A stretch of 64,000 bases of DNA from a virus (IMGVR_UViG_3300023283_000017:3370-67369), one strand, 5' to 3'; positions 4,541 to 25,734 are shown, counted from the first letter of the stretch. The notes: generated by a model not told the origin, from the letters alone. Program-made: numbers and translations.

Positions 4541-4551
4541 TGCTAGTGCTT

Positions 4552-7382: not shown

Positions 7383-7383
7383 G

Positions 7384-9256: not shown

Positions 9257-9309
9257 GTCAGTCTCCGTTGCTCGGTTGATCGGTAAAGCCGCAGCGCGAC
9301 CTTACCAAA

Positions 9310-9338
9310 CGTATAACCGAGTTATTGCCCGACCGCAA
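9310..9338 (-). promoter_or_regulatory. Promoter TTGCGG-N17-TATACG with operator ATAACCGAGTTAT (9313-9325)
   Basis: 17-bp spacing; upstream of the helicase gene. Confidence 0.7.
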
Positions 9339-9357
9339 CCGGTCGCTGTAAGCTTGC

Positions 9358-9819
9358 CTACGACTTATCCTTCGCGACCTTCGCGAGAACCTGGGTGTTA
9401 GCGTCGAGGACGCCGGCGAGTCCCTTCAGGGCGTCTTCCATCAGGAGCGGCCGCCCGACAGTGGAAGCCGCTGAGGCGATGGTTTCTGTGGCCGGGCGGC
9501 CATGCTTGAGCGCGACGCGCAGGTTCTGAGAGCTGGCCTCGAGAATGTCGTCGTCGTGCTGATCCGAACCGTTGGTGCACACCGCGAGCCACATATTAAC
9601 CGCGTACTGCGCGGCGTTGAGGATCGCATTGAGGCGCATGAGGTCTTCCGGCGACCGAGCCATCTCGGCTTGCAAGATCGCCCAGATACGCGGCGCGACG
9701 CTCTGGGTCACATCCTCCATACTCTCCGCGATGCCTTCCTGGAAGAGCTTCTTGCGCTCTTCGTCGCTCATGTTGGCGAGGCCGTTCAAAATAGAATGCA
9801 TGTCAAAGTCGTCGCTCAT
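9358..9819 (-). CDS. Hypothetical helical protein
   Basis: Start set at MSDDFD after a CGGAG RBS. Confidence 0.65.
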   Translation of the reverse strand: MSDDFDMHSILNGLANMSDEERKKLFQEGIAESMEDVTQSVAPRIWAILQAEMARSPEDLMRLNAILNAAQYAVNMWLAVCTNGSDQHDDDILEASSQNLRVALKHGRPATETIASAASTVGRPLLMEDALKGLAGVLDANTQVLAKVAKDKS

Positions 9820-9894
9820 CGTGTTACTCCGTCGGTTGGGTCGCCCTAGCATATTGCCAGGGCGACGGTCAGGCATCAAGTAATCCTTGAGGAC

Positions 9895-10479
9895 TCACCC
9901 AACTTCCATGGGCGTGGCACAGTCGGGGTTCGGACACTGGACAAACGTCACGTGCTCGATCCACTTGACGGTCGTCCGCATAACGAACTCGCACTCTGGG
10001 CACGTGCACTTGACCATGCGGGTCGTCTGCTTCTTCGCGCCGTCCTCCTGGGTCAGCTCCGCATGAGGCAGCGGGCCGAGGCTTTCGACGATGGGATCCG
10101 CTCAAGCGTGCCAATCGCTCGTCGGGACGGTCGCCGTGGCCTTCCCACCGAGACCGAGAGCCTTCATCGCCGCCTTGAACTTCGGACCATGACCTTCCTC
10201 GAGGCCGACAGCCGCGTGGATCAGTTCGTGAGTGTGGACGTCGGCGATGCGCGACGCGCACCCGAGCTTTGGTGTAATGAAGATCTCGAAGCAGCCATCA
10301 CCCGAGCACCTGGAGTCCCAGCACTCGCCGATGCGCGAAGAACGCGCGCCTTTCGACGTGAATCCGACTGAGACCCGGATTTTCTCGGGTATGGGGTAGC
10401 CGGCCCGCTTGAACACGGGCCGGGCGCGGCGGGTGAACTCGTTGAGCCAAGCCTCGCGGGTCTTGAAGTTGTGCGGCAT
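9895..10479 (-). pseudogene. SprT-like zinc metalloprotease with a C-terminal Cys-rich domain, interrupted by in-frame TGA at 10102-10104
   Basis: HELIH and GHGPKF motifs; the same frame continues 68 codons past the stop (LGPLPHAEL...KKQTTRMVKCTCPEC...CPNPDC). Confidence 0.7.
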
Positions 10480-10490
10480 GTCGTCCTCCC

Positions 10491-10793
10491 TCAGCGCAGG
10501 ACTACAAACGCGAGGCCGTTCTCGCGCTCGGCGGGTGTCACCGACAGGTTGATCTGGGCGCCGCGCTGGTCGACGAGGACGCGTCCCACATCGTTGAGCG
10601 CCTCCATGAACTTCTCGCGCGAGATCGTGATGCAGGTTCCGCCCTGGAACCCACGACCCTCTTCGTCAGGGATCGGCAAGAACGCGCAGATGTGAACCTG
10701 GAACCGGACGCGATTTTCAAGGTTGCGCACGAACTTGACGGCTTCGGCGGTCGAATTGAAGAACAGCTCTTCGTCCTTGGTGATGCGTGACAT
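10491..10793 (-). CDS. Early hypothetical protein
   Basis: AACGGAG RBS; directly downstream of the promoter at 10821-10855. Confidence 0.7.
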   Translation of the reverse strand: MSRITKDEELFFNSTAEAVKFVRNLENRVRFQVHICAFLPIPDEEGRGFQGGTCITISREKFMEALNDVGRVLVDQRGAQINLSVTPAERENGLAFVVLR

Positions 10794-10820
10794 TGTAGGT
10801 TGCTCCGTTGCTTCGTTGAT

Positions 10821-10855
10821 ATAACCAAGTTATATCCGAGGACACCGGATTGCAA
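10821..10855 (-). promoter_or_regulatory. Promoter TTGCAA-N17-TAACTT with operator ATAACCAAGTTAT (10821-10833)
   Basis: Same architecture as 61975-62009; CGTTTAAACG abuts the -35 at 10857-10866. Confidence 0.7.
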
Positions 10856-10868
10856 CCGTTTAAACGCA

Positions 10869-11138
10869 TCAGGCGGGAAAATCTTTACCTGGCACCAAGA
10901 GCCGGCCCGTGCTACCGCCCGTCGGGTTGTGGATCACCTCGGGACGCTCCATGTTGGTGACGAGCGCAGCCTCATAGTCGACGATCTCGTAGTCGATGCG
11001 CGGGTTGGCATTGACTGCGGCGACAAACCGCGCACAGCCGTCAGAGCCGCCGCCGACCTCGACGATGTCCGCCTCCTCGATACCCGCCTTAGGCGTGCCC
11101 GGTTTATAGCGCTTGACGATGCGAATCTTATTGCTCAT
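10869..11138 (-). CDS. Hypothetical protein (89 aa)
   Basis: C-terminal part of track ORF 10869..11543; GGAGG RBS before MSNKIR. Confidence 0.6.
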   Translation of the reverse strand: MSNKIRIVKRYKPGTPKAGIEEADIVEVGGGSDGCARFVAAVNANPRIDYEIVDYEAALVTNMERPEVIHNPTGGSTGRLLVPGKDFPA

Positions 11139-11574
11139 ATGGGTCCTCCATTTCCAGAATGCCGACCTTAGAGTCGCGTGCCATTGCTCTCGCGGCGGCG
11201 AAGCTGTCCTCGAACCGCTGTGCGAGCGCGTTGGGGACGGGTTTCGTGATGACCGAGGCGACACCTGCCTGGATGAGCAGCCCCATGCAGTTGGCGCACG
11301 GATGGTGCGTGACGTAGGCCGTGGCTCCTTCGGTGTTGCCGACCGCGTTAAGGACGGCATTGGCTTCCGCATGCTGCACCATGAGGTATTTGGTGTTGCG
11401 GTCGTCATAGCGCTCAGCGGAGTCCTCGACGCCACGCGGGAAGCCATTGTAGCCCATGGCGACCACGCGGCGCTTGTCGTCGACCAGAACGCAACCGACT
11501 TTCGTGGACGGATCTTTCGACCATGCAGCGACGTGTTCGGCAAGGGTGAGGAACCTAGAGTGCCATTTCAGCAT
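11128..11574 (-). CDS. dCMP deaminase
   Basis: WSKDPSTKVGC, GYNGFPRG, HAEANA, PCANC zinc motifs. Confidence 0.93.
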   Translation of the reverse strand: MLKWHSRFLTLAEHVAAWSKDPSTKVGCVLVDDKRRVVAMGYNGFPRGVEDSAERYDDRNTKYLMVQHAEANAVLNAVGNTEGATAYVTHHPCANCMGLLIQAGVASVITKPVPNALAQRFEDSFAAARAMARDSKVGILEMEDPYEQ

Positions 11575-12497
11575 CGTCTTTTCCACTTCTCTAAGGTGAT
11601 GACGCGGCACAATATGTCGCTGATGTGGTTGTAGTCATAGGACGGGCTCTCAAAAGCCATCAGAACGCCGCGTGCCCAGCGGTTGTCGGGCGCGTTGAGT
11701 ATCACCTGCGTTGCGTAAGCGCGAACTTGCTGCCGAATGGACTCCGGCGGCGTGTCGCTGAGTTGTGTCAGCACCTTGCACACCTTGGCGAAGGAGAAGT
11801 CGGGCTTGATGATGAGGCGCGCGAGGTCAACTGCTTCCTTGGCAGAAGATGCTCGGCTCAACGCGCCCTCGGCTTCGGCGCGCGACGTGGTGTGCTTGAC
11901 AGCGGTCAAGTTGACTAGGGCTTGCCGCGGCGAACCGCGCGCCTCCATGACCGCTACGTCGAGGACGTCCTCGACGAGGTCGAGCGACTCTTTCTCGGCT
12001 ACCGATGCGATGAGCCGCAAGAGCGGGCGATATGGGACCTCCTTGAGCGAGTAGCACACGCACCGAGTCTGGACCGTTTCAGGGACTTTTGCGCCTTCGG
12101 TCGTGCAGAAGAACCAGTAGACTCCGGTTGGAGGCTCCTCGATGATCTTTAGAAGCGAGTCCCAAGCCTGACGCGACAGTCGATGGGTTTCGTCAACGAT
12201 GATAGCGCGATTGCCACCATCCAGGGACGTGTAGTTGGCTCGATCTGCGACCGCGCGCATGGCATCCACGCCAGTATGGCTTGCCGCGTCGATCTCGTCT
12301 ACTGCGGTGCAGTTCAGCTCTGCTGCGGCGAGACGGGCGAGTGTGGTCTTTCCCGTACCAGAGGGCCCCTGGAACAAGAATGCCTGTTGTCTGCCTTCTG
12401 ACAGAACGCGCGCGAGGCCGTCCTTCACGTGCTCCTGACCGACGACCTCATCGAGCGAGGTAGGTCGGTACTTAGTGTGCAAGGCGTCGCCAGTCAT
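11568..12497 (-). CDS. AAA+ clamp-loader subunit (DnaX gamma/tau-like)
   Basis: KYRPTSLDEVVGQEH, GPSGTGKTT, EIDAASHTGVD, DETHRLS, LLKIIEEPP, TRC. Confidence 0.88.
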   Translation of the reverse strand: MTGDALHTKYRPTSLDEVVGQEHVKDGLARVLSEGRQQAFLFQGPSGTGKTTLARLAAAELNCTAVDEIDAASHTGVDAMRAVADRANYTSLDGGNRAIIVDETHRLSRQAWDSLLKIIEEPPTGVYWFFCTTEGAKVPETVQTRCVCYSLKEVPYRPLLRLIASVAEKESLDLVEDVLDVAVMEARGSPRQALVNLTAVKHTTSRAEAEGALSRASSAKEAVDLARLIIKPDFSFAKVCKVLTQLSDTPPESIRQQVRAYATQVILNAPDNRWARGVLMAFESPSYDYNHISDILCRVITLEKWKRRC

Positions 12498-12699: not shown

Positions 12700-14690
12700 T
12701 TTGCCTCATCCCAGTTGCTACCCAAGGTTCCGTCAGCTAGAACAGGCACCTCCAGCGTCACTGCCTGCTCCATGATGTGTCGAAGCTCCTCAAACGCCTC
12801 GTGCCCCTCTTTCGTGCGAGGCACTGACGAGTTCAGTTCATCATGAACTGTGAGGTGCGGCACGAGCACATTGAACACGCCGGCGTCCCACGCGTCGACC
12901 ATGGCCTTCTTCATCAGGTCGGCGGCCGAACCTTGAAGCAGGGCGTTTAGCGACTTGTGAGTGAACGACCGACGTGGGCGCTTCGTGACGCGGCGCGTGC
13001 TGAGAACGGCGTCTAGCAGCTTCTCGTCCACAAGCTCCTTGACAACCTCACCCTTGTCGCCCCGGTACTCTACCTCGAAAGTCGGGAACCGACGCTTTCG
13101 ACCGAGTATGGTGCGGATAAAGCCGCGCGACGCAGCAGCGCTCGACGCGCGCTCGAGCATGGATCGGATGAAAGGCGCGTTCGCGTGGAACTTGTCCATG
13201 ATCGCTTGCGCGTCGGACATCTCGACGCCGAGCGACGCAGCCAGCTTCGGCACCCCCATCCCGTAGACGACGCCGAAGTTCACGTTCTTCGCCTGCTTGC
13301 GAGGCACACCAGTCAGGTCAGACGCCATCTGGTGGAAGTCGGTGCTCGGGTCCTGACGGTACATGCGAACTGCTTCCGAGGCGTCGATACCTTTGGTGCT
13401 GGCCGCGTAGTGCACGAGCAGTCGGTACTCGATCTGCGACCAGTCGAGCGACCCCCATTGCATCCCCTCTTCCGGTATGAACATGGAGCGCATGAGCGGT
13501 CCGAGTTCAGGATGGCGAGCCGGGATGTTCTGCAGGTTCGGGTTAGAGCTCGAGAAACGACCGGACACGGTCCCTGACTCGTCTGACTTGAGCTGGTTGA
13601 ACATGCAGTGGATGCGGCCGCCAACGTGCCCCTGCAGGATGTAGGAGTCGATGAAGGTGCCGGCCGTTTTGTCATACTCGCGCGCCCGCATGATTAGTTG
13701 CGCGATCTCGTGGTTGCACGCCTTCAGCCAGTCTTTCTTGAATGATGGCTTGCCCGTGGCTGTCCTCTCGTACTCAAGTCCTAGCGCGTCGAAGCCAACA
13801 GAAATCGAGTCCGCCGACCAGATGTCCACCGACGTGCCCGCCATGTCGCGCAGCTTTGCCTCGATCTCGGCCTTTTCCTTGCGAAGGCGATCCGACGAGT
13901 CCTCGGCTTTCTTGACGTTGACGCGCACCCCTTGGTAGCGCATTTCCAGGAGCAGCGGCGTCAATGCGGCTTCGATACGGAAAAGCTCGAGCAGTTCGTC
14001 CTGTTCAAGCTTCGACTGCTGCTTGTCGAAGACCCGCCAAGCGAGCGTTGCGTCATCCTCGGCGTAGACAGATGCGTGCGACGGATGCACCCGGTGCATG
14101 TTCTCGATGTAGCCTTGGCCGTAGAGCTTGACCAACTCGTCGTAGGACTTGGTGAGGTTCAGGTAGTCTTTGCAAAGCGCATCGAGCTTGTAGGTTAGGC
14201 GGTTCTCGTCGATAAGGGGCTCTGCTATCTGCACGTCGCGGAACTTCGCCTTCGGGAACACGATGCCGTGACGCGTGCGCAGCCAGTCTAGGTCGTACTG
14301 CAGGTTGGCGCCGACGATCTCACCTTCGAACTTCTGAGCTTCCTCGGCAAGCCGAGCGTAGAACTTGTCCGGGTCTTCGACGTTCGGGCCGACCTCGTGC
14401 TGAGTTGGGTAGTAACACGCGTCTTGTTCAGCATAGGCTATGGACACACCGACGACCTTGCCGTCCTTACGATGCGCACCGGGCCCGAACTGGTCGATGC
14501 CCGGGTCATGCGCCTCGATGTCCAGGCCAATGCGCTTCAGGCCGTCGATAGAGCGGTACTCAGGAGGTGCGTAGTCGCGGGGGAGCTCTCGAGGCACCTC
14601 AAAGTGCTTTCGCGCTTTCGCGGGTGTCTTCTGCTGCGGTTGAACATGCGCGAGATCAAAGAGACCTCCGTCGACTAGGCCGACCATCAA
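12696..14690 (-). CDS. polA: Family A DNA polymerase with a 3'-5' exonuclease domain
   Basis: LDIEA (Exo I), ANLQYD, TVSGRFSSSNPNLQNIP, DWSQIEYR (motif A), KQAKNVNFGVVYG (B), VHDEL (C). Confidence 0.96.
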   Translation of the reverse strand: MMVGLVDGGLFDLAHVQPQQKTPAKARKHFEVPRELPRDYAPPEYRSIDGLKRIGLDIEAHDPGIDQFGPGAHRKDGKVVGVSIAYAEQDACYYPTQHEVGPNVEDPDKFYARLAEEAQKFEGEIVGANLQYDLDWLRTRHGIVFPKAKFRDVQIAEPLIDENRLTYKLDALCKDYLNLTKSYDELVKLYGQGYIENMHRVHPSHASVYAEDDATLAWRVFDKQQSKLEQDELLELFRIEAALTPLLLEMRYQGVRVNVKKAEDSSDRLRKEKAEIEAKLRDMAGTSVDIWSADSISVGFDALGLEYERTATGKPSFKKDWLKACNHEIAQLIMRAREYDKTAGTFIDSYILQGHVGGRIHCMFNQLKSDESGTVSGRFSSSNPNLQNIPARHPELGPLMRSMFIPEEGMQWGSLDWSQIEYRLLVHYAASTKGIDASEAVRMYRQDPSTDFHQMASDLTGVPRKQAKNVNFGVVYGMGVPKLAASLGVEMSDAQAIMDKFHANAPFIRSMLERASSAAASRGFIRTILGRKRRFPTFEVEYRGDKGEVVKELVDEKLLDAVLSTRRVTKRPRRSFTHKSLNALLQGSAADLMKKAMVDAWDAGVFNVLVPHLTVHDELNSSVPRTKEGHEAFEELRHIMEQAVTLEVPVLADGTLGSNWDEAK

Positions 14691-15505
14691 GCCATCCCCG
14701 CATACAGGTGAGCTTGAACCTGGAACCGCAGACCGTTCGCGACCGCGTAGCGGGCAGTGTGCTCGTGGTTCGCTTGGTTGGTAGTCAGGTCAAGCAGCCC
14801 GGGTTCCCAGAAGGAGATGACTTCCTCGACAGTCGAGCGCTGCTCCATGGACGTCGCGTTGCTCGTTCGCATGACTTTCGCTTTCCGAGGTTCGCGCGCG
14901 TAGACGTTCATAGGCGAGACGAACACGTCGCCCGGGCTACTTAGGTTCCAGTCGAGCGCCCAGTCGGGAATGGACGAGTAAGGGGACGATGGGTCCGCGC
15001 ACATCACGAACTTGAGACTGTCCGCGCGCTCGAGAACCTCATCTCGCGGCGTCAAGTAGCGCGTGGCCACGCCTCGCTTCTCCATGCACTTCGGCGACAC
15101 GACTAGGTGGACATCGTCGGGAAGCGGTTGCAGAAGCGTGCCGTTGCTCTCGATCTGGATGTTGCGCCACAGCCCAACTTGCGTCTCGAGCCACTCGCCG
15201 AGCTCTTTCTGGAGCAGCGGCTCGCCGCCGGTGATCACCAAGACGTAGTCCTTCGCTTCGAGCGGCGTCTCGAATACCAGGTCGCCCAGATGGTCGTTTA
15301 AACGGTCGAAAGTCAGCCAGTCTCCGGAGTCGAAATAAGTGTCGCAGAAAGAGCACGCCAGGTTGCACTTCGCGAGGCGCACGAAGACGGCAGGAAGGCC
15401 CGAAAATGGACCTTCCCCTTGAAGCGTGACGAAGCAGGAAGTCACGTGGAGAACGCCTTCTTCGGCAAAGTGTCGCTGACCCACTCGCTCGTTGAGGCCG
15501 AACAT
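14687..15505 (-). CDS. queE: 7-carboxy-7-deazaguanine synthase (radical SAM)
   Basis: TLQGEG...AVFVRLAKCNLACSFCDT (CxxxCxxC), ITGGEPLLQ, IESNGT, VSPK. Confidence 0.93.
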   Translation of the reverse strand: MFGLNERVGQRHFAEEGVLHVTSCFVTLQGEGPFSGLPAVFVRLAKCNLACSFCDTYFDSGDWLTFDRLNDHLGDLVFETPLEAKDYVLVITGGEPLLQKELGEWLETQVGLWRNIQIESNGTLLQPLPDDVHLVVSPKCMEKRGVATRYLTPRDEVLERADSLKFVMCADPSSPYSSIPDWALDWNLSSPGDVFVSPMNVYAREPRKAKVMRTSNATSMEQRSTVEEVISFWEPGLLDLTTNQANHEHTARYAVANGLRFQVQAHLYAGMA

Positions 15506-15895
15506 TCAGGACCTCGCCGCTAGACGCTTGGCTCGATCCTCGGCCGTCTCGCCGGAATACCAGCGGCCGTTGGCGCGCCGCTTCTGGTCGTTGAGGCGCT
15601 TTTTCCACTCCTTGGCCGAAACCCCGTAGACGTCGATCACGTCCACGTCACGCCCGCGCTTGTTCTTGCGCTTGATCACCGTCCCATCCTTGCGACGTGC
15701 GGTGTGCTCTGTTCGCGGGATCGCGACGACTTTGGGCTTGCAGCCGAGCAGGACGCTGTCCGGAATACCGCGGGTCTGAAGGTGCGGGCCGATCTGGTTG
15801 ATGCCCATGGTCGCGAGTAGGCGCCCCATCGCACCCGGGATCGCGCCGCTCTTGTCGTCGCGCATCTTCGACATGAGTTTATCGAATAGTTGCAT
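15506..15895 (-). CDS. Basic hypothetical protein
   Basis: ORF track; K/R-rich; tightly packed between neighbours. Confidence 0.6.
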   Translation of the reverse strand: MQLFDKLMSKMRDDKSGAIPGAMGRLLATMGINQIGPHLQTRGIPDSVLLGCKPKVVAIPRTEHTARRKDGTVIKRKNKRGRDVDVIDVYGVSAKEWKKRLNDQKRRANGRWYSGETAEDRAKRLAARS

Positions 15896-15898
15896 AGG

Positions 15899-16873
15899 TT
15901 ACTCCTGTCGCGTGCGGCCTGCGATGAGGCCAAGTGAGCCCCGGGCCGTGCGAAACGGAACCGGAGACGGATAGCGGTCAAACCCGATTTCTTGAGCTCG
16001 GGACATGACCGCGGTGAGATCCTTCGTGCCGAACAGGGCCGAGTTCTCGAGGTCACCGAGATTGGTGTCTAGGGACTCGCTGTGCTCGATGTGACGCAGC
16101 GTAGTGTAGATGTGGTTCGGGTTGATCTCGATGAAGCCGTCTGAGTAACCGACGGCCGACATGAAAGCACTACGGTACTGGTCACCGATGCTCTGCAACC
16201 CGGTCCAGTCGTTGACGCTGTCCACCATGTGGACAGCCTGATCTGGCATTTCAGGGTTCATGCGAGCCGCATGCGCCCAAGACCCGTCTCGGAACTCGAG
16301 CAAGACGCTGCGCTTGTCATGCCCCCACGCCTCGAGATCCGCGCGTCTGAGGCGGATGTAATCGACGACAGCCCGTGGTAGGGTGACACCGTGGAGACCC
16401 GAGCTTTGCCGCAGCTCTGAGCGCAGCAGAACGGTGCTATTCGTTGCGGTGATGCGGCAGCCATCGAACCGCGCGCTACTCGACCAAGGACGCGACGGAT
16501 GACCTTCGGTGAAAGGCCAGACGTCGTCTAGCGCGTCGCCCAGGTCTTCGGGGTCTGCAATAGGAGATGTCTCGATGTCTGGCTTGGTCACTTCGCGCTC
16601 AGCGGAAAGTCGCTTCAGCCGAGTGTTTCCGTTCTTCGACTTCAGGGTGACGTAGGACGCCCCGACTGACAGCTCAGCATCCGGGACCTTGCGGAAGGCG
16701 AAGTCGAGGTCAACTCCCGTGACAGAGAAGTCCTTGGCATCGACCGGTATGCTGACCGCCATGATCGCGTTCTTCGCTTGCAGTCGACCCTCCTTGACCG
16801 TCACAGCGGCGTCCGCATCAAGCACGGCTTGGAAATCGCACGCGTGCTTGACTAGCGCAAATTGTTCTCGCAT
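15899..16873 (-). CDS. Putative sliding clamp (DNA pol III beta-like)
   Basis: 324 aa of repeated beta/alpha character; ITATNSTVL and TLPRAVV resemble beta-clamp segments; lies among clamp-loader, polymerase and exonuclease genes. Confidence 0.5.
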   Translation of the reverse strand: MREQFALVKHACDFQAVLDADAAVTVKEGRLQAKNAIMAVSIPVDAKDFSVTGVDLDFAFRKVPDAELSVGASYVTLKSKNGNTRLKRLSAEREVTKPDIETSPIADPEDLGDALDDVWPFTEGHPSRPWSSSARFDGCRITATNSTVLLRSELRQSSGLHGVTLPRAVVDYIRLRRADLEAWGHDKRSVLLEFRDGSWAHAARMNPEMPDQAVHMVDSVNDWTGLQSIGDQYRSAFMSAVGYSDGFIEINPNHIYTTLRHIEHSESLDTNLGDLENSALFGTKDLTAVMSRAQEIGFDRYPSPVPFRTARGSLGLIAGRTRQE

Positions 16874-16884
16874 GCTCGTCTCCG

Positions 16885-17520
16885 TTACGTGCTCGGCCAG
16901 TTCTCTGGTAGGCGCCAGAGGTTGTGGCCGGCGTCCTCAATCGCCCACAGCACGGCGGCACAAGCCTCGACGTCCACCATCGCATCATGCGCCCCTTCAA
17001 AGCCCATTGGATCGACCAGCGCGCGGTATGACTCGTCTAGAGTCGGGAACTTGAAACCGTACTTGCCGGGCAACTGTAGCACCGGCTCGAGGGTCTTCAT
17101 AGTGCAGAACTTGGGTGTTTCCCAATATGCTTGTTGAGGCGCCGCGATGCGCGAGTAAGCGGCGCGCATGATCGGATCATCAAACCCCATGTTGTGCGCC
17201 ACGATGCGGTCCGCTTTCTTCACCATGTTGTTGAACGCGGCGACGCCGACCTTGTAGGTCGTCCCTGCTCGGTCGACCGTCTCTTGAGTGATCCCGGAGT
17301 CGATGAAGAACTTCTCGGTTGGTATGGTCGCAACGCCGCCGTGCGCGTCGAGCGGTTCCATGAAGTAAGAGCAGTGCGCCACGGGACGACGGCCCCAGTA
17401 AAGGATAGCGGCGATCTGCACAAGCGACGGCTCTTGAGTGAGCGGTACGTTCTTTCCTTTAGGTCGCATGCCGTTGGTCTCTGTGTCAAAGACGAGCGTG
17501 GTCACATCAGTCATGAACAC
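16885..17520 (-). CDS. DEDDh 3'-5' exonuclease (DnaQ/epsilon-like)
   Basis: FDTETNG, LVQIAA, VAHNMGFD, CTMKT, AHDAMVDV. Confidence 0.88.
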   Translation of the reverse strand: MFMTDVTTLVFDTETNGMRPKGKNVPLTQEPSLVQIAAILYWGRRPVAHCSYFMEPLDAHGGVATIPTEKFFIDSGITQETVDRAGTTYKVGVAAFNNMVKKADRIVAHNMGFDDPIMRAAYSRIAAPQQAYWETPKFCTMKTLEPVLQLPGKYGFKFPTLDESYRALVDPMGFEGAHDAMVDVEACAAVLWAIEDAGHNLWRLPENWPST

Positions 17521-17941
17521 CCTCTTTGTGCTTGGTGGCGCGCGACTCAGAGTCCTGCCGCCAGTCTCCCCACTCTCGCAACTCGTTCTTGTCGCGTTTG
17601 GTCGTGAGCACGCTCAACGCACATTGCGCGATGAAGTCGCTCGTAGGTTCGCCGTAGCGCACAACGATCACCCCATCTTTGACGAGTTTAGGCTCCTGAT
17701 CCAAACCCAAGATCCGGTAGTGCTCTCGAAGATACTCGCGGACCGAACGCAGCAGGCCGTCCTGCGCGAGTAAGACGATGTCCGCCCATTCTCCTGCGCG
17801 GTCATCATGGGTCTTGGCGGATTCAACTTCGTTAATCTCCTCCTCGATGTGTGCAAGCACGCCGGCGCGGCGCTCCCCCGGACCGAACGCCATGCGCCCC
17901 CACGCACATTGCCGTGCCAAGAAATCAAAATGGTCAGACAT
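17507..17941 (-). CDS. DUF550/MazZ-type dATP/dGTP pyrophosphohydrolase
   Basis: AFGPGERRAGVLAHIEEEINE...EWADIVLLAQDG...KRDKNELREWGDWR. Confidence 0.8.
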   Translation of the reverse strand: MSDHFDFLARQCAWGRMAFGPGERRAGVLAHIEEEINEVESAKTHDDRAGEWADIVLLAQDGLLRSVREYLREHYRILGLDQEPKLVKDGVIVVRYGEPTSDFIAQCALSVLTTKRDKNELREWGDWRQDSESRATKHKEGVHD

Positions 17942-19142
17942 AGTAGGTGAGCTCCTCTTCGGCTCTCGTCACCACGGTGTAGAGCCAGCGTCTGCGTTGT
18001 AGTCGGTCGTTTACGCGCATCCGGTCGTCCGCGATGACGACGTGGCGCCATTGAGAGCCCTGCGACTTGTGCCCGGTGATGCAGTAGCCGTAGTCGAAAG
18101 CTTGAACGCCATCAGCACGAAGGAAAATGGTGCGCTGCTCATAGTTCTCCTGGAAGAGCCCTGGGTCGCAGATGATCTGACCTTTCGTCCCATCGTAGTC
18201 GACTTCCAGGTGCAGCAAGTTGCCTTTCTTGAACGAGTCACGCGCGGCACGGCACGTCACCCCATTCAAGTATCCCTTATCATGGTCGTTGCGGCGACAG
18301 ATCAGCTTGTCGTCGGCGAGTGGGTACTTGTCGGTGAATCCGATGAACTTGCGCATGGCGCGAGTAAGGCGGTGCCTCGATTGGTTAGAGCCCGTAATGA
18401 CCTGCCCCGCGTTCAGCGCAACCTCCATATCCCACTCAGACTTGCGCTTGATCCTGACCAACCCGTCGCCGAACTCACCGAACTTCACACTGCCGCCTTG
18501 CCTGATCTCGTTCGCGAGCCAGATAATGGGGCTGTCAGCGGCTTGCCGGTGAATCTCCTCGAGGACGAAGTCGTAGTCGTTAGATGTCAGGTGCGCCTTG
18601 CCCTTGACAGGAGGAAGCTGCCCTGGGTCACCCAGATACAGGACCGGTACTCCATAGGACTCGAGGTCCTTGCCCATACGAGCATCTACCATGGAGGACT
18701 CGTCAACTATGACAAGATCAGCATCCTCGATCTCGCAGTCTGATTTTCGCTCAAAAACAGCAGACGATTCTTCCGTTGCTTTGTTGAGCTCACGTTGCCA
18801 GGTGCTCAGCTTCTGCTGGTCGGGTTGCTGCTTCTCGGCTTCCTGCTCTATCAAGCGTTGCAGCTCTTCGACCTGCTCCTGACCGACGTTTCCTTTCGGC
18901 TGGTAGATCAGCTTGTGGATCGTCGTCGCGCCAGGGCATCCTTTCTCGCGAAGAACAGAGGCGGCCTTACCGGTGAAAGCCGCGAACTTGACCTCACCGC
19001 CTAGGCTTTCCGCGATGTGACGTGCGAGCGTCGTCTTACCAGTGCCTGCGTATCCGCCTAGTGCGAAACGCGTCGTTTCCCTGTTCTTGAGCCACCTGTC
19101 GATCTCGAGTAAGGCGCGTTCCTGACCCGGTGACCAATCCAT
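17934..19142 (-). CDS. SF1B Dda/RecD2-like helicase
   Basis: GYAGTGKTT, AFTGKAA, TIHKLIY, DESSMV, GDPGQLPPV, EIHRQA, ITGHKSQGSQW; ATG overlaps the dpdA stop (TAATG). Confidence 0.9.
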   Translation of the reverse strand: MDWSPGQERALLEIDRWLKNRETTRFALGGYAGTGKTTLARHIAESLGGEVKFAAFTGKAASVLREKGCPGATTIHKLIYQPKGNVGQEQVEELQRLIEQEAEKQQPDQQKLSTWQRELNKATEESSAVFERKSDCEIEDADLVIVDESSMVDARMGKDLESYGVPVLYLGDPGQLPPVKGKAHLTSNDYDFVLEEIHRQAADSPIIWLANEIRQGGSVKFGEFGDGLVRIKRKSEWDMEVALNAGQVITGSNQSRHRLTRAMRKFIGFTDKYPLADDKLICRRNDHDKGYLNGVTCRAARDSFKKGNLLHLEVDYDGTKGQIICDPGLFQENYEQRTIFLRADGVQAFDYGYCITGHKSQGSQWRHVVIADDRMRVNDRLQRRRWLYTVVTRAEEELTYYV

Positions 19143-20443
19143 TATAGTCCTCCGAACAGGAACTGCTGTGCTGGTTCCTTCTTGTAGTCCTTCGCCCACT
19201 CAGCGAACACAACGAACTCAGCCATGCAGATCAGGTTGCGAACGCGCGAGTCCCACCGGCAGACCTCGAAGGGAAAGCCTAAGCGCTCGACGCGCTCCCG
19301 AACGTAGGCCTGCTGCTCCTCGGGTAGAGTCCAGAAGTGCTTGCCTTGGTCAGCCAAGTGTCCTCCGAACAAAGGAAGAGCGTCCTCATGAACACCGGCG
19401 CGAATGAGGGTGTCCGAAACGTCCGCGCAGGACGTATCTACGGTGCACCCGAGCTCTGCTGCGCTGACAAGCGACCCGTCACTCGTGCGCGCCCGAGCCT
19501 CGACGCTGATGCTCACCCCTTCGAGCGAGACAAAGTAGTTCATATAGTGCGGCTCTGCTTTCCGACCTCCGGTGTGCGCTTGGTCATGGAAGATGTCTAT
19601 CATACCGAAGCCGCCGTGCTGCACCCACGCCGCGGAGTCGCCCGAGTACCAAGGCACGTTGCGCACCATTCGATTACCGGTCGTCGCGAGGCCGTGGGTG
19701 ACGATGTGCGGCCAACGGTCCTTGATGATTGAGTGCGCGTCGCGTGACCAGTCGACACGCTTGCCCTCTGGTAGGTCGTTGCGCGGCGAGACACAGATGT
19801 AGTTGTGTTTGCCGTCTACCTGCTCGACGCACTCACCGAGACGGTCGAAGCTCTCCCCTTGGTGAAAGACGGGCAGGATGATGTTGCCGAACTCCTCGGT
19901 CAGGAGCTTGTAGTTGATATCTGAGATGCGGACCGCTTCCTCGATTTCTTCAGGGGTCGGATCGCGGCCACGTTCCCCTGGGATGACGTCCAGGTTGATG
20001 CCCCAGATCTCATCGAACAGGCCGTCTGCGGCTTCGATGAACCGGGAGTACTTGCGCTTCACGTCGTCGACTGTGACGGTCTCACCTTTGTTCCAAGCCG
20101 TGAAGGCGCCGCTATCAAGCAGGATGGCTCTTGGGTAGGGCTTGCCGCGCAACGTCTGGCAGACGCGCTCCAGGATCTCAGTCGTGTCCCAGTCTTCCGA
20201 GCGCGCAAACTCCTTCTGCTGTTCGCGTCGCTGCGCGTCGCGCTTCTTGATGTTATCGACGTGCTGAGGATACGCTTGCAAGTAAGCGTCCGCGTCGAGG
20301 ATCCCAGCGTGAAGGTCCTTTACCCACCGCAGGACAGCTTTCTCATAGTCCCCGTGCATCGAGAAAAGCCGGTGCGTGTTCATACGGTTCTCGACGGTCT
20401 GGTAAGGATCGTTGCGCGGCGTGCCGGACATATACAGATGCAC
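19142..20443 (-). CDS. dpdA: DpdA-type DNA-guanine transglycosylase (TGT fold)
   Basis: LDSGAFTAW, NLDVIPG, PVFHQGE, HGLA, PWYSGDSAAW motifs; context of que genes. Confidence 0.85.
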   Translation of the reverse strand: MHLYMSGTPRNDPYQTVENRMNTHRLFSMHGDYEKAVLRWVKDLHAGILDADAYLQAYPQHVDNIKKRDAQRREQQKEFARSEDWDTTEILERVCQTLRGKPYPRAILLDSGAFTAWNKGETVTVDDVKRKYSRFIEAADGLFDEIWGINLDVIPGERGRDPTPEEIEEAVRISDINYKLLTEEFGNIILPVFHQGESFDRLGECVEQVDGKHNYICVSPRNDLPEGKRVDWSRDAHSIIKDRWPHIVTHGLATTGNRMVRNVPWYSGDSAAWVQHGGFGMIDIFHDQAHTGGRKAEPHYMNYFVSLEGVSISVEARARTSDGSLVSAAELGCTVDTSCADVSDTLIRAGVHEDALPLFGGHLADQGKHFWTLPEEQQAYVRERVERLGFPFEVCRWDSRVRNLICMAEFVVFAEWAKDYKKEPAQQFLFGGL

Positions 20444-20454
20444 TGGTGCGTTCC

Positions 20455-20634
20455 TCAGCTCACCAGGTCGTCGACTTGTCGCTCGAAGTCGTCGCGCGCC
20501 TCGTCGAGGTTGTCTATGGACGTTTTGCTCATCGCGTTGCGAAAGCGAAATGTTGCCTCGATGAGTTCCCGCGGAATTTCTGCGTTGCTCGCTGTGTTAT
20601 CGAGGAACCTAGACTGGGCGTCGGTGAAATACAT
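20455..20634 (-). CDS. 59-aa acidic hypothetical protein
   Basis: Read by eye (MYFTDAQSRF...RQVDDLVS); AACGGAG RBS. Confidence 0.6.
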   Translation of the reverse strand: MYFTDAQSRFLDNTASNAEIPRELIEATFRFRNAMSKTSIDNLDEARDDFERQVDDLVS

Positions 20635-20673
20635 GGCTAGCTCCGTTACTGTGTCGTTACAGTAATTTGAGTG

Positions 20674-20703
20674 AGGCCCGCCTTCAACACCAAAAGCGGG
20701 CCT
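20674..20703 (-). terminator. Stem-loop AGGCCCGC / GCGGGCCT after queF
   Basis: 8-bp inverted repeat just after the queF stop; no clear U-tract. Confidence 0.4.
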
Positions 20704-20711
20704 TACCTGGA

Positions 20712-21185
20712 TCAGTGCGGTTCGGGCATATGCGCGTCCGAGCCGCGCTGGTACTCCATGCTAGGATTGATCGAGATGCCGCCGCGAGGAGTGAACTCGC
20801 CGGTGACGCGCATCCACTGTGGATCGAGGAGCGTCACGAGATCGCCCAGAATGCGCGCTACGCAGGCCTCGTGGAAGTCTTGGTGGTTGCGGAAGGAAGC
20901 GAGATAGAGCTTCCAGGACTTCGACTCGACGCACCACGAGAGCGGGACGTACTCGACGACGATCCGAGCGAAGTCCGGTTGACCGGTCTTCGGGCACAGC
21001 GACGTGAACTCCTTGGGGTCCTCATAGCCACCGAGCTGGATCACCGGAAGACCGTTCGCGAGAAGGTTCATCGGGTTGCGGAAACGCTCGAGAAGGTCGC
21101 TGTCGGCCGGCTTGAAGTTACCGAAGTCGGACGACCCCGACCCGAGGTGCTTGAGGCTGGTTGCGTCGGAAGACGTTTTGCTCAT
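20712..21185 (-). CDS. queF: preQ0 reductase, unimodular type
   Basis: [15 protein letters not shown] (catalytic Cys/Asp), QueF motif [18 protein letters not shown]. Confidence 0.92.
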
Positions 21186-21189
21186 GTTG

Positions 21190-21843
21190 TTACTCCAGGA
21201 ACAGAGGGTGTTGATGGGGTCCGGTCTCGACGTATTCGATGGCCGGCTCTAGTCGATGGGGCACCTCGAAGTACTCCATCCACGTTCGCAAGCGACGCAG
21301 CCGCCTTGCCGCGTCAGCCGTCGTCTCCGCGTCAGCGTCTGTCATCTCGCACAGTGCCCCACGCTCGCCGTCGATCCTGAGCATCGCCCAGCCACGACCG
21401 AAGAGCTTTTGGGTGAGATGGTTCGGCTTGTCGTCCGCCGCGAACTCGAGAAAGCGCATGAGCTCGAAGTCGCAGGAGAACGGTTGCAGGCCGTGAATGC
21501 CGCACCGACCGAACAACTCGCCTTCCTCGCGGATGACGTTTCGGCAGTGGTAGCTCTCGTGATCCGATTGCAAGTCGGACCAGATGAGGAAGCTCTTGCC
21601 ATTCACCTCGACGTAGCGCTCAACGAGGTCTAGCGGAGGCTTGTCCTCGGTAGGCAGGTAGTCGAGCGAGAAGCGAGGACAGCAACCGGCGCAGCGGGCG
21701 GGACACGTGAAGCCTCGGAAGATCTTAGGCGACACGCGGACGGCTTTCGGCGTGTAGGTCTTGCCTTTGTAGGTAAAAGGCTGCGCCGCCATGACGGCAA
21801 AGTAGGTGCCGACGACCTTGTCCAGTGTGTCGCGCTGCGGCAT
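21190..21843 (-). CDS. Cys-rich putative Fe-S protein (YkgJ/FliB CxxCxxCC-like)
   Basis: [11 protein letters not shown] and C...[11 protein letters not shown]; 8 Cys; ATG overlaps the folE stop. Confidence 0.7.
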
Positions 21844-22787
21844 CAGATTGGCGTCGTCGTCTTGGCTAGCATCAGGAACTCCTGGCGAGCATCAGGTTCC
21901 TGCTTGATGCAACCACGCAGAGCGGAGGTCGTCGTCGAGCACCCACGGTGCTGGATCCCTCGCGACTCAACACACATATGGCGTGCGCGCAACAGGACGC
22001 CTACTCCCTTCGGTTCGAGGCAGTCTTGAAGGGCGTCCGCGATCTGGTTGGTCAATCGCTCCTGCACCTGCAGGCGCCTCGCGTAGAGGTCGACCAGTCG
22101 GTTCATCTTGGAAAGTCCCAGGACCTTACCATTCGGGATATAGGCGACCGACGCGAGGCCGAAGAAAGGCGCCATATGATGCTCACAGTGCGAGTAGAAC
22201 GGGATGTCTACCTCGATGACCATCTCGTCTACGCCCTCGGCACCATCCGTGAACACCTTGAGGACTTCCTTCGGGTCGCGAGTGTAGCCGGAGAACCAGG
22301 TCTCCCATGCTTTGACGACACGCCGCGGCGTCTCGAGCAGTCCTTCACGCGTCGCGTCGTCGCCGACGACCTCGAGGGAACGCGTCACCACATCGAACGC
22401 GCTCTCGTCGTGGTCGTCGATGACTTCCCATGGGAACACGAGCCAGTCGGGGTTCATGACAAGACCGACCTTGTTCTCGTGCTGAGGGCTTTTCGCGAAC
22501 AAGGCGAAGAACGGCTTGCCGGCGGCGCGGTGCCGAGTCATTGTCGACCCCGAGTCGATCAGGTCGTCCACAATGACATCTGCCTCCGCGAGATCACTCG
22601 TCGCCATGATGTTGACCTTGGTCGACCGCTCAGCTGCGCGCTGCAAGGCGAGCAACGCGGGCACCCCACCGCGAGGCACTGGATATGCCTTGATCTCGGC
22701 AGGCGCAAGAGCGGCGCGCTCTATGCGGTTCATGAGTAGAGAGGCCGCTTGCGCGACCTCCCCATAGGTGACGATGCGCTTGGTCAC
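21843..22787 (-). CDS. folE: Fusion of an N-terminal purine phosphoribosyltransferase (Gpt-like) and a C-terminal GTP cyclohydrolase I
   Basis: PRT: [26 protein letters not shown]. FolE: [33 protein letters not shown]. Confidence 0.92.
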
Positions 22788-23629
22788 GCAGGCACCTCCT
22801 CGAGCTCTGCTTCCTGCACGAGCGAGATGTAGTCGTCGACCGTCCAGGTGTTGCGGTTGCCCGCAGGCCCACGTTCCACGACCTCGCGCGCAACGTCGTA
22901 GTTCGACGACGCGGGCAGCTCACCCAGCGACTCGCACGCCGCGCGGAGCCAGATCGGGTCCGCGACACCTGCGGCCTCGAACCCCCGCTCCCGGAGCTTA
23001 GTCGCGTGGTCGGCGCCCGTGGGCGGATACTGACCATCGTAGGCGGTATGGGAGTAGGCGAGCGCGTTCATGCACCCAGGCAGGCGACGCGCGAGGTGGA
23101 CGCTCTCCGCCTTGGTCAGATCCATCAGCGGGGTGTGGATCTTGCAGGGGCCGATGGCGCCGTCTTGACCCGTGAACGTCCCGCGATTGATAGTCTCCTC
23201 GAGCGAGTCGATGAAGGTCTGACGGCAGTCGGGATAGCCGCCGAAGTCCTCCTGGCAGACACCGGTCACCATGTTGTGGCAGCCGTTGACGTAGGCGCGG
23301 TTCGCCGCGATGGTCAGGAACAGCTGGTTCCGCATGGGAACGAAGGTCTTCTCGAGGCCGCCGGGCAGGTTGCCGTCCTCATACTGCTCGAGGGCGTTGT
23401 CCGACACGAGCGGCGAGGTGCCTTTCAGGATGGGGCCAAGTTCGATGACCTCGTGGGAGTCGGCTTTGGCGAGTTGCGCGATCTTCACCGCCGCGTCGAT
23501 CTCGGCACGGTGGCGCTGGTTGTAGTCGAAGGTGACCGCGTGAACCTCGAGGAAGTTCTGCTTTGCCCAGAAGAGGGCGGTGGTCGAGTCCTGCCCACCG
23601 GACAGGACGACGAGTGCTTTGCTAGTCAT
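22784..23629 (-). CDS. queC: 7-cyano-7-deazaguanine synthase, variant without the Zn cysteines
   Basis: [34 protein letters not shown]; start set at MTSKAL. Confidence 0.92.
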
Positions 23630-23667
23630 GAAGTGGTTTTCCTTTCCTGGTACCCACCACAGGTGAA

Positions 23668-23683
23668 GCACGTTTAAACGTGC
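23668..23683. promoter_or_regulatory. Perfect 16-bp palindrome GCACGTTTAAACGTGC upstream of queC
   Basis: Seen directly; member of the GTTTAAAC family. Confidence 0.7.
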
Positions 23684-23764
23684 GATTGAACGTGAAACGC
23701 GGCGCCACGTAAGCGCCGCGTCAGTCACGTTATGGTGCGCGCCCCGCGGGGCGCAACCGATGAG

Positions 23765-24376
23765 TTAGGACTTCCTGCCTTTTGCCTCGAGCGGCGCATC
23801 ATAGCCGTCGGGAAGGACGAGATGGTAGCGAGCCGTGTCGCCTTCCCACTCGGTGCGCACGCCGTAGCCCTTCTGCCGAACGTCATAGTACAGGGCCGAA
23901 CGGATGGAGTTGTCGTCCCACGAAACCCCATCCCGCCGGACGCAGACGGCGCGAAGGTCGTCCATCGTGGCGCCTTTCGTGAGCAGGTCGATGATGGCTT
24001 GCTGCTTCGACCCGACGCGCGCCTGGATCAGCGTGGGCATTGGATCGACGTTGATCTCGCCGGACTTGCGCGACTTGCGCTGCTCCTTGGGCTGTTCCTT
24101 CGGCTCAGGTGCCTTCTCCTCCAGGTCGGGCTGGATGATGAACCCGGTCAGCTCCTCACCGACCACGTTCTTGGCTTCCGAAGGCGTCAGATCCACGAAA
24201 ACGACGATGCCAAAGCGGCCATCAGCGGTCTCGCGCACGTCGGTGCCGGTCGCGAAAAGAACGTCGCCGTGAGCGTCCGAGTGCTTCGCCAGGTCGCGCT
24301 TGACGGCTTTCCTTGCGCCTTTTGCGTCCGAGAAAGTGCGTGGCTCGTCTGCGTGTGCGATGAATTGGGTAGCCAT
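23765..24376 (-). CDS. DNA-binding protein with a C-terminal winged helix (DUF3489-like)
   Basis: SKQQAIIDLLTKGATMDDL...WDDNSIRSAL...GYGV; AACGGAG RBS. Confidence 0.6.
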   Translation of the reverse strand: MATQFIAHADEPRTFSDAKGARKAVKRDLAKHSDAHGDVLFATGTDVRETADGRFGIVVFVDLTPSEAKNVVGEELTGFIIQPDLEEKAPEPKEQPKEQRKSRKSGEINVDPMPTLIQARVGSKQQAIIDLLTKGATMDDLRAVCVRRDGVSWDDNSIRSALYYDVRQKGYGVRTEWEGDTARYHLVLPDGYDAPLEAKGRKS

Positions 24377-24406
24377 GGTAAGTCTCCGTTGCTTGAGGTT
24401 GATGGA

Positions 24407-24619
24407 TCAGCGTGCGGTGTAGCCGCAATGAGTGGCGGCAAGTTCAGGATTGCACCGCACGAATTGCGCAAGGTCGAGTTCCTTGTGCATCTGCGCTTGG
24501 CTGTCGAAGTGCGGTGACACGCGCTCAATCAGTCGCAGACCTTCTTTCGGAGTGATCTGCTTCGCAGCCATCGCTGCGTAGACCTTGTTGGCATAGGTTG
24601 CGGCTTTGCGACTGGTCAT
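24407..24619 (-). CDS. Small early hypothetical protein
   Basis: AACGGAGG RBS; first gene after the promoter at 24638-24674. Confidence 0.65.
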   Translation of the reverse strand: MTSRKAATYANKVYAAMAAKQITPKEGLRLIERVSPHFDSQAQMHKELDLAQFVRCNPELAATHCGYTAR

Positions 24620-24637
24620 GTCGTGTCCTCCGTTGCT

Positions 24638-24674
24638 ATAACTAAGTTATATGCGACGAAGGAGGCGGGTGCAA
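24638..24674 (-). promoter_or_regulatory. Promoter TTGCAC-N17-TATAAC with operator ATAACTAAGTTAT (24638-24650)
   Basis: 17-bp spacing; the operator covers the -10 and start region. Confidence 0.75.
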
Positions 24675-24703
24675 CCGGAAGTCGCACCCGCTACCTGAAA
24701 AGT

Positions 24704-25150
24704 TTACCTTTTGAAGACGGCCGAGTTCGCTCCGTGCTCCATCACCTCGACAGAAGCCAAGCGAACGCGGTCGCCGTAGCCGGCATCCTTGAGCCAAATC
24801 TCTGTGGTCTCGAAGATGAGCTCCGCGAACGCCTCGCACCCGTTAGCGTAGGTGACTACCATGTCGATGATGCCGCGGGCGTCGGCCTCCCGGAACCAGT
24901 CGATGTGCGGGTCATCATGAGCGACCAGCGTCTTGTGGTCGAAGGTGTCCTCGAGCCGACCTTTGAGCGTCTTGAGCGACCCGAAGTCGACCACCCAGTT
25001 GCGCTCGTCGAGGCTGTCGGCCTCGAAGACAAACTTGATCGCCAGGGCGTAGCCATGAAGGAAGCGGCAGTGGGAATCCGCTCGCCACTGACGGAAAGCG
25101 GCGGAGAGGCCGAGGTTGTGCCCGTAGGTCTTCGTCGACTGGTAGGTCAT
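24704..25150 (-). CDS. queD: 6-carboxytetrahydropterin synthase
   Basis: SHCRFLHGY, WVVDFG, FDHKTL, VMEH. Confidence 0.9.
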   Translation of the reverse strand: MTYQSTKTYGHNLGLSAAFRQWRADSHCRFLHGYALAIKFVFEADSLDERNWVVDFGSLKTLKGRLEDTFDHKTLVAHDDPHIDWFREADARGIIDMVVTYANGCEAFAELIFETTEIWLKDAGYGDRVRLASVEVMEHGANSAVFKR

Positions 25151-25734
25151 CAGAGGTGCTCCTTGAGATTCAGCTCACCCCAGTGGGTGAACCAGGTGAT
25201 GCCGTTCGCACTGGCGTCTGAGCGCTGCCGGCTGTTGTGCGACGTTTGCCGCATGAAGGTTTTGTGCCCCGCACGGACCCCGATCAACGCGTTCTTGAGG
25301 TTGTCCTCAACCCAGATGCAGGGAGGGTTGAACGCGCGAAGAATCTGCTCCTTCGATTGACCGAGGTCGAGGCAGATGACGGAGTCGAAGACGTCCCCAA
25401 AGTGCTTCTGCAGGTTTGCTTTGCGCATCTGCACTGTAAACCAGTCGCTAGAGCAGGAGGTTACGACGTGCAGGCGAGCCCCTCCTTCATACAAAGAGGC
25501 GATGGCTGGTTCGGCACCCTCTACCGGTGGTAGGTCACCGAACGCGCGCGACGAGTTGAAGTCTTTGATTAGCCGGGCCGTATGTTGAGGATCCGTGCCG
25601 AGCCAGTCGTCCAGGACCCACTCCTGCGGACCACGCGGACAGATGTAGCGTTCAAGTGTGCTGCTGCAGTGGGCCTTGAACCCTTCGAGCCAGTTCAGAA
25701 GAACGTCATCGCAGTCAAGAAGAACAGTTTTCAC
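25150..25734 (-). CDS. HAD-family 5'(3')-deoxynucleotidase-like hydrolase
   Basis: LLDCDDVL (DxD), VTS, WVEDNLKN. Confidence 0.8.
   Translation of the reverse strand: MKTVLLDCDDVLLNWLEGFKAHCSSTLERYICPRGPQEWVLDDWLGTDPQHTARLIKDFNSSRAFGDLPPVEGAEPAIASLYEGGARLHVVTSCSSDWFTVQMRKANLQKHFGDVFDSVICLDLGQSKEQILRAFNPPCIWVEDNLKNALIGVRAGHKTFMRQTSHNSRQRSDASANGITWFTHWGELNLKEHL

Follow-up and report, generated by a model that had tools for sequence, protein, structure and literature searches.

A likely phiSM-type 7-deazaguanine DNA-modification system with a phosphoribosyltransferase-FolE fusion in a Nanhaivirus-like phage genome

Gene content and the closest described systems

Several phages carry 7-deazaguanines in their DNA, which protect it against restriction. 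The closest described system to the one discussed here is that of Cellulophaga phage phiSM, which encodes FolE, QueD (with a CxxxHGY motif), QueE, QueC, a unimodular QueF, a DpdA1-type transglycosylase and DpdM (PMC10516641). The deoxynucleoside of preQ1 (7-aminomethyl-7-deazaguanine), termed dPreQ1, is present in the DNA of phiSM and of phage Dp-1 (PMC6884629 Table 2; PMC10516641 Table 1). The phiSM protein CEPG_00054 has been named DpdM, a preQ1 methyltransferase (Cui et al., 2023; PMC10516641), and DpdM of phage VH7D together with DpdA2 yields the methylated form, mdPreQ1, in E. coli. We describe here the que and dpd genes in a 64,000-nucleotide stretch of viral DNA (IMGVR_UViG_3300023283_000017:3370-67369, termed the window). 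By analogy with phiSM it is quite likely that these genes form a phiSM-type system, in which a fraction of the phage-DNA guanines would be converted to dPreQ1 and part of this methylated to mdPreQ1. Since the parts list is that of phiSM, dPreQ1 with some mdPreQ1 is predicted rather than a new base, for which we see no evidence.

The window covers nearly the whole of an IMG/VR virus record of 67,369 bp, which has direct terminal repeats and was judged complete. It stems from an uncultivated phage of marine type, represented by a metagenomic contig only. Megablast and annotation place it nearest to the Nanhaivirus siphoviruses Pseudanabaena phage Pan1 and Dinoroseobacter phages vB_DshS-R5C and R26L. 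With all three it shares a syntenic minus-strand block that runs from DNA polymerase I (PolA) to primase, and protein identity to Pan1 across this block is 46-87%. The GC content is about 0.59-0.63 over the studied region. All que and dpd genes are encoded on the minus strand, as follows (PRT, phosphoribosyltransferase; ORF, open reading frame; aa, amino acids).

14687..15505, minus strand: QueE, radical S-adenosylmethionine 7-carboxy-7-deazaguanine (CDG) synthase (phrog_2076, 1.2e-46; PF04055; CxxxCxxC present as CNLACSFC)
19142..20443, minus strand: DpdA-type guanine transglycosylase, 433 aa, DpdA1-like (phrog_887, 5.7e-55)
20712..21185, minus strand: unimodular QueF, NADPH-dependent preQ0 reductase (PF14489, 1.8e-32; TIGR03139, 137.5 bits against a cut-off of 86.9)
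21190..21843, minus strand: DpdM homolog, a CxxxCxxCC protein and predicted dPreQ1 N-methyltransferase (tblastn, invariant cysteines)
21843-22787, minus strand: PRT-FolE, whole gene (PF01227, 3e-69)
21843..22418, minus strand: GTP cyclohydrolase I (FolE) domain of the fusion (PF01227, 3e-69)
22419..22787, minus strand: N-terminal 6-oxopurine PRT-like domain of the fusion, residues 1-123 (VIA-align, motifs)
22784..23629 (likely; ORF to 23728), minus strand: QueC, preQ0 synthase (PF06508, 3e-52; TIGR00364, 170 bits against a cut-off of 150)
24704..25150, minus strand: QueD, 6-carboxytetrahydropterin synthase, CxxxHGY variant (PF01242, 3.5e-17; phrog_2389, 4e-41)

An earlier note on this sequence had named folE, queD, queE, queC, queF and a dpdA-type gene, and the Pfam, NCBIfam and PHROG matches, all on the minus strand, bear it out. 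Its account of the gene junctions is likewise exact when the sequence is read directly: the TGA of queC and the GTG of folE lie within GTGA (4-nt overlap), the TGA of folE and the ATG of the Cys-rich dpdM homolog lie within TGATG (1-nt overlap), and the TAA of the latter gene is followed by caac and then by the ATG of queF, a gap of 4 nt. Between queE and dpdA lie genes for a clamp, an epsilon-like exonuclease and a RecD-like helicase, along with a PF04447 dATP/dGTP pyrophosphohydrolase.

Despite the common parts list, the window and phiSM differ in several respects. The window belongs to a Nanhaivirus-like lineage of about 60% GC, and its genes are interleaved with replication genes, unlike those of phiSM. 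Its DpdA has 433 aa and two insertions, whereas that of phiSM has 240 aa; the zinc cysteines of QueC are kept in phiSM but not in the window; and the window FolE has an additional PRT domain. The long DpdA and the QueC without zinc ligands are found equally in Pan1, R5C and R26L. The lineage had in fact already been catalogued for DpdA and QueF: a table of phages with DpdA and que genes lists R5C beside phiSM and Dp-1, apparently with QueF included (Hutinet, 2019). Our literature search found no report on the DNA chemistry of Pan1, R5C or R26L.

We infer the steps of the pathway because the enzymes are homologous to those tested in other phages. FolE, QueD, QueE and QueC would convert GTP to free preQ0, which QueF would reduce to preQ1. 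The DpdA1-like transglycosylase would then, after replication, swap guanine in double-stranded DNA for preQ1, and DpdM would N-methylate the aminomethyl group to give mdPreQ1. The expected outcome is phage DNA that is shielded from guanine-dependent restriction.

The enzymes of preQ1 synthesis mostly show the signatures of their families. QueE gives, in addition to the matches listed above, weak matches to several QueE NCBIfam models. QueF has its nucleophile, C64, in CPKTGQPD, and the ESKSWKLY motif and the FHE pair are intact. With the catalytic Cys and the E(S/L)K(S/A)hK(L/Y)(Y/F/W) motif it has the features of a nitrile reductase. The intact QueF motif had been the earlier argument for preQ1 rather than archaeosine, and this prediction is supported: Pfam detects no glutamine amidotransferase (GATase) domain on QueC, which together with the QueF motif speaks against the archaeosine (dG+) route. 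Similarly, a formyltransferase of the DpdN type (PF00551) was not found anywhere in the genome, which speaks against an fdPreQ1 route.

QueC and QueD both depart from the canonical proteins. An alignment to 3bl5 and 2pg3 shows that QueC lacks every one of the four zinc cysteines, which are replaced by A, T, D and T (region 22784-23060). This is common to the window, Pan1 and R26L, while the B. subtilis QueC and those of phiSM and Mycobacterium phage Knocker keep the four Cys. At the C-terminus, the three related proteins also end in a conserved stretch of about 60 additional aa, which has no family match. In QueD the motif reads CRFLHGY, so that the final His of CxxxHGH is a Tyr. The HGY variant occurs in QueD of the window, Pan1, R26L and phiSM, whereas Knocker QueD has His. 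Since phiSM makes dPreQ1 with the same variant, the window QueD is presumably functional. The protein is not DpdL, the QueD-like protein with LxxxHRHxF, because the Cys of the CxxxHGY motif is kept, and this speaks against a dDG route. The departures of QueC and QueD are lineage traits.

The start of queC deserves a comment. The ORF as listed opens at a GTG at 23728, while the homologs from Pan1 and R26L begin at an internal ATG at 23629, and a purine-rich stretch, AGGAAAGGAAAA, is found upstream of this ATG. The ATG at 23629 is therefore probably the true start, and because the homologs start there the apparent N-terminal extension of QueC is best seen as an artefact of the ORF call. The 100 bases upstream (region 23629-23760) contain a GC-rich hairpin-like stretch, gcgccccgcggggcgcgc, and a palindrome, CGTTTAAACG; from its sequence the region looks like an intergenic regulatory region.

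The transglycosylase and the DpdM homolog

The central enzyme of the proposed system is the transglycosylase. In tblastn searches its sequence matches DpdA of phiSM, Dp-1, 9g and Iggy. The subfamily comparison covered phiSM DpdA1 and the genome of VH7D, which encodes DpdA2; the window protein matches phiSM DpdA1 at 5.6e-16, and against the VH7D genome there is no match at E<=10. By this grouping the window transglycosylase appears to be DpdA1-like and of the DNA type. Profile searches see little of it. Pfam (E<=10) and NCBIfam do not recognise the protein, a search of the PDB with its sequence returned chance matches only, and hmmscan at E<=10 finds no PF01702, the Pfam model of tRNA-guanine transglycosylase (TGT), in it. 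Both the aspartate of LDSGAF and that of DSAAW are unchanged in 27 family members. The protein has two insertions, one helical and charged (about residues 45-100) and one strand-rich (about residues 305-370), that neither the family members of about 320 aa nor the short DpdA1 possess. Close homologs from the genomes of Paracoccus tegillarcae and Sulfitobacter sp. JL08 (P0164, P0171) share the first insertion, a hint of Rhodobacterales hosts or prophages.

An AlphaFold2 model of the protein, built on 27 homologs, has a pLDDT (predicted local distance difference test) of 91.7. Foldseek with this model ranked TGT and DpdA first, with marginal E-values. VIA-align against 48,161 PDB representatives gave the following matches.

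7ui4, DNA preQ0 insertase DpdA: Z 18.5, 291 residues aligned
1iq8, archaeosine TGT (arcTGT): Z 17.8
3unt, bacterial TGT: Z 17.8
6fv5, QTRT2: Z 16.0
9ntn, Cap10: Z 15.5
Best TIM barrel after these five TGT-superfamily chains: Z 12.5

These scores bear on a published interpretation, in which the homologous genes of Pan1 are taken to complete the host pathway to queuosine in tRNA (PMC9837993). Applied to the window, this reading would make the genes auxiliary metabolic genes by which host tRNA gains more queuosine, and the phage DNA would be unmodified. The Z-scores to the tRNA TGTs lie within 1 of the DpdA score and agree with this. However, a search of the entire phage genome with PF01702 gives nothing at E<=1, while the same model hits 14/14 control genomes, and the sequence groups with phage DpdA whose phages carry modified DNA. 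Furthermore, DpdM is tied experimentally to mdPreQ1 in DNA, and no tRNA gene was found in the complete phage genome. We regard a role in host tRNA as highly improbable for the window, and the interpretation published for Pan1 is unlikely. A phiSM-type DNA modification would correct it.

The Cys-rich ORF next to queF is the component that defines the expected decoration. Pfam (E<=10) and NCBIfam do not recognise the protein, but tblastn against phage genomes gives 42% identity to phiSM CEPG_00054 (1e-30) and matches of about 3e-26 to 5e-26 to VH7D, phi-Grn1 and phi-ST2, with about 39% identity to VH7D DpdM. Identity is 65% to Pan1_55, whose annotation reads YkgJ-family cysteine cluster protein, and 46% to gp4 of Mycobacterium phage Knocker. 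Eight cysteines (C47, C51, C54, C55, C100, C114, C124 and C165) are invariant in the window protein, Pan1_55, Knocker gp4 and phiSM CEPG_00054. Their spacing fits the C42/C92/C102/C112/C150 pattern of phiSM and corresponds to the two metal sites of phiSM DpdM. As judged from these sequence data, the Cys-rich ORF is a DpdM homolog, and for this reason the expected decoration is the known N-methylation to mdPreQ1 and not a new base. The earlier suggestion that extra enzymes make a further-decorated or new guanine derivative is thus not supported.

The gene context is in line with this assignment. Among 33 IMG/VR contigs that encode a DpdM homolog, 29 have preQ0 genes within 10 kb of it and 21 have QueF; DpdA of the window's type is found in 16/33, and many of the 33 contigs share the window's gene order, FolE-DpdM-QueF-DpdA. 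The pathway to mdPreQ1 via DpdM, so far described for Cellulophaga and Vibrio phages, would thus extend to Nanhaivirus-like phages of Rhodobacterales and cyanobacteria. Within this lineage, R26L is without DpdM, and in Pan1 the gene has another position than in the window and adjoins dpdA. Pan1 with DpdM and R26L without it are cultured relatives that offer a natural comparison. Another cultured phage, Knocker (L085), has QueF, DpdA, a DpdM homolog, QueC, QueD, QueE and FolE at 1310-5550; its QueF is annotated as GTP cyclohydrolase I and its DpdM homolog as hypothetical. From these genes Knocker is predicted to carry mdPreQ1.

The phosphoribosyltransferase-FolE fusion

The PRT domain on FolE is found in the window and not in Pan1, R5C or R26L. 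Residues 1-123 are added relative to the FolE proteins of Pan1 and R26L, which are 87% and 79% identical to the window protein over the FolE part. The AlphaFold2 model of the fusion has a pLDDT of 90.4. In Foldseek the FolE domain matches FolE of M. tuberculosis, human and T. thermophilus (E 1e-22, TM 0.9), and its zinc ligands, CEHH and C272, are invariant in 24 fusions. Foldseek with the fusion model returned FolE chains only; the PRT domain was reached by the wide VIA-align search, with these matches.

4z1o, HGXPRT: Z 12.4
6kp5, XGPRT: Z 12.1
5vog: Z 12.1
1vdm: Z 11.7
1pzm: Z 11.2
7kl6: Z 11.1

The 6-oxopurine PRTs outrank PyrR, APRT, UPRT and OPRT as structural matches. In sequence searches the relation is faint: phmmer gives a weak match to XGPRT in the PDB (E 5e-3), and Pfam sees the PRPP (phosphoribosyl pyrophosphate) loop alone. 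The type I PRT fold is shared with Gpt of E. coli and Yersinia (1a95, 6kp5), as are the PPi (pyrophosphate) loop RGG, the PRPP loop DDL(I/V)D(S/T)G, the lysine of FAK and an aromatic motif, W..PW. Among 24 fused homologs, the PPi loop PRGG, the PRPP loop DDLIDSGxT, the stacking aromatic W115 and FPWE are invariant and the 6-oxo lysine, K99, is nearly so, which argues for an active site under selection. The similarity to Gpt is weak, about 18 loop residues are missing and the domain belongs to a separate small family. By fold and motifs it resembles a 6-oxopurine PRT, but it is not a Gpt ortholog.

The fusion is not confined to the window. It is carried by 53 protein clusters (276-326 aa) and occurs in 34 isolate phage records, among them NP1, PaMx25, JG054 and Quinobequin-P09 (Pseudomonas), VpKK5 (Vibrio) and MMDA13 (Sphingomonas), which have the same two-domain architecture. 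The PRT parts of these siphovirus proteins are 38-48% identical to that of the window, and the genes always lie beside dpdA and que genes. Counting stand-alone and fused forms, the PRT domain family comprises 239 clusters at 50% identity. We followed the gene context of PRT-FolE in related viral loci and by tblastn: the fusion is present in 19/80 IMG/VR FolE loci, and 18 of these 19 also have DpdA. The fusion-bearing viral contigs differ from the window in that QueF is found in only one of them and DpdM in none (tblastn). The Nipunavirus phages NP1 and Quinobequin-P09 have a GATase-QueC, and MMDA13 has a QueF-like amidotransferase instead. Fusion, QueF and DpdM together are found only in the window and in contig L087 (IMGVR_UViG_3300032272_000006, 83.7 kb), in which QueC, PRT-FolE, QueF, DpdM and DpdA follow in this order at 7354-11955. 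As L087 has PRT-FolE, QueF, DpdM and DpdA, the gene combination of the window is not unique. No phosphoribosyltransferase is mentioned in Hutinet (2019), Cui (2023) or the MMDA13 paper, and a full-text search for DpdA and phosphoribosyltransferase yielded nothing beyond a preprint of 2026 that deals with secondary-metabolite clusters.

The PRT domain most likely salvages the guanine that DpdA releases. We infer this from three observations: the fusion partner FolE is the first, GTP-consuming enzyme of the pathway, DpdA frees one guanine per exchange, and the Asp in DDLID is invariant here. In 6-oxopurine PRTs this Asp contacts N7 of the purine. The Gpt-like domain would join the released guanine with PRPP to form GMP. 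Such salvage would refill the GTP pool used by FolE and would clear a product that competes in the exchange. Co-occurrence cannot test the idea, because most FolE-bearing viral contigs have DpdA with or without the PRT domain.

A different substrate was considered. The PRT domain may phosphoribosylate preQ0, preQ1 or CDG, as the tubercidin PRT does, and thereby open a pre-replicative route via modified dGTP beside DpdA. The 2026 preprint offers a precedent for such chemistry in tubercidin clusters, which use a PF00156 PRT and a haloacid dehalogenase (HAD) on CDG (bioRxiv 10.64898/2026.04.15.718813), and a modified-dGTP route has been raised for Campylobacter phages (Hutinet et al.). The gene block of the window also contains a PF04447 pyrophosphohydrolase, an NT5C-type nucleotidase and a PolA of its own. 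In an elaboration of this idea, which is just as improbable, the polymerase would incorporate the modified dGTP, and the MazZ-like PF04447 enzyme and the NT5C nucleotidase would reshape the nucleotide pool and clear competing nucleotides. However, the window has a conserved DpdA, and in the view of Cui et al. the known 7-deazaguanine DNA modifications are all post-replicative. The fusion partner is the GTP-consuming FolE, not QueC or QueF. MazZ is retained in Pan1 and R26L, and the HAD protein in Pan1, both phages being without a PRT domain, so these genes are not tied to it. Finally, the N7-contacting Asp of DDLID is invariant although 7-deazaguanines have no N7. Hence we hold a PRT acting on deazaguanines to be quite improbable, and guanine salvage is favoured.

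The PRT-FolE fusion is the most useful lead from this analysis: a conserved purine-PRT-like domain sits on FolE in many DpdA phages, some of them well-studied phages of Pseudomonas and Vibrio. If true, guanine recycling by this domain would be a simple account of how phages sustain and drive the swapping of DNA bases. Of the non-canonical components of the gene set, DpdM is already known and the QueC and QueD variants are lineage quirks, while the PRT-FolE fusion stands as a recurrent and unstudied protein.

The predicted DNA product and neighbouring genes

Several points weigh against the proposed phiSM-type system with guanine salvage. QueC is without its zinc cysteines and its activity could be altered, which is a caveat for preQ0 synthesis; the same may be said of the activity of QueD, in which Tyr replaces the last His of CxxxHGH. 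The scores of the transglycosylase model to DpdA (18.5), arcTGT (17.8) and TGT (17.8) are tied, and the fold cannot separate a DNA from a tRNA substrate. Expression of the phiSM DpdA1 in E. coli gave no activity (PMC10516641), and the specificity of DpdA1 for preQ1 therefore rests on correlation. As for the PRT domain, it reaches 24 bits (E 2e-5) against NF006613, the Gpt equivalog model with a cut-off of 138, and in the alignment the flexible loop that follows the second strand of XGPRT is about 18 residues shorter.

Some of these points could be taken as signs of different chemistry. If DpdM decorated the base differently, or acted together with the zinc-less QueC and the variant QueD, an undescribed 7-deazaguanine derivative would result in the DNA. 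In phiSM and the Vibrio phages mdPreQ1 is indeed no more than a minor species (PMC10516641), and QueC and QueD depart from the canonical motifs. We nevertheless consider such a product improbable. The DpdM homolog shares its eight Cys and many further residues with its phiSM counterpart, and phiSM has the same HGY in QueD and makes dPreQ1 and mdPreQ1. Furthermore, the cluster holds no other tailoring candidate, as the small ORFs have no catalytic family and no formyltransferase is present. dPreQ1 with some mdPreQ1 remains the predicted product.

Further genes of the region are listed below; those for the MazZ-like enzyme and the nucleotidase are peripheral to the pathway.

17507..17941, minus strand: MazZ-like dATP/dGTP pyrophosphohydrolase (PF04447, 1e-8, above cut-off)
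20455..20634, minus strand: 59-aa ORF upstream of dpdA (syntenic with Pan1_54 and R26L_59, 27-31% identity, invariant EA.F..RNA)
25150..25734, minus strand: NT5C/HAD-type nucleotidase (PF06941, 2.3e-8, above cut-off)

A 324-aa ORF at 15899-16873 was dismissed as a candidate transglycosylase, since it encodes a homolog of the sliding clamp (phrog_947). Small ORFs were likewise considered as tailoring enzymes and set aside: those of 59, 68 and 70 aa are too small, that of 129 aa is very basic and that of 203 aa resembles DUF3489 weakly. None of the five has a match to a catalytic family, and the 59-aa ORF at 20455-20634 has no family match at all. The 129-aa very basic protein (15506-15895), encoded between queE and the clamp gene, is kept in Pan1, R26L, L086 and L091 and has no family match; it is possibly a DNA-binding protein. 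The 203-aa ORF (23765-24376) is located between queC and queD and has conserved counterparts in Pan1 and R26L; the weak resemblance to DUF3489 (E 2e-3) concerns its C-terminal part. It probably encodes a DNA-binding protein and not an enzyme. The MazZ-like gene is conserved in Pan1, R26L, L086 and L091. The NT5C/HAD nucleotidase gene lies directly upstream of queD and has one base in common with its end, and a homolog is present in Pan1.

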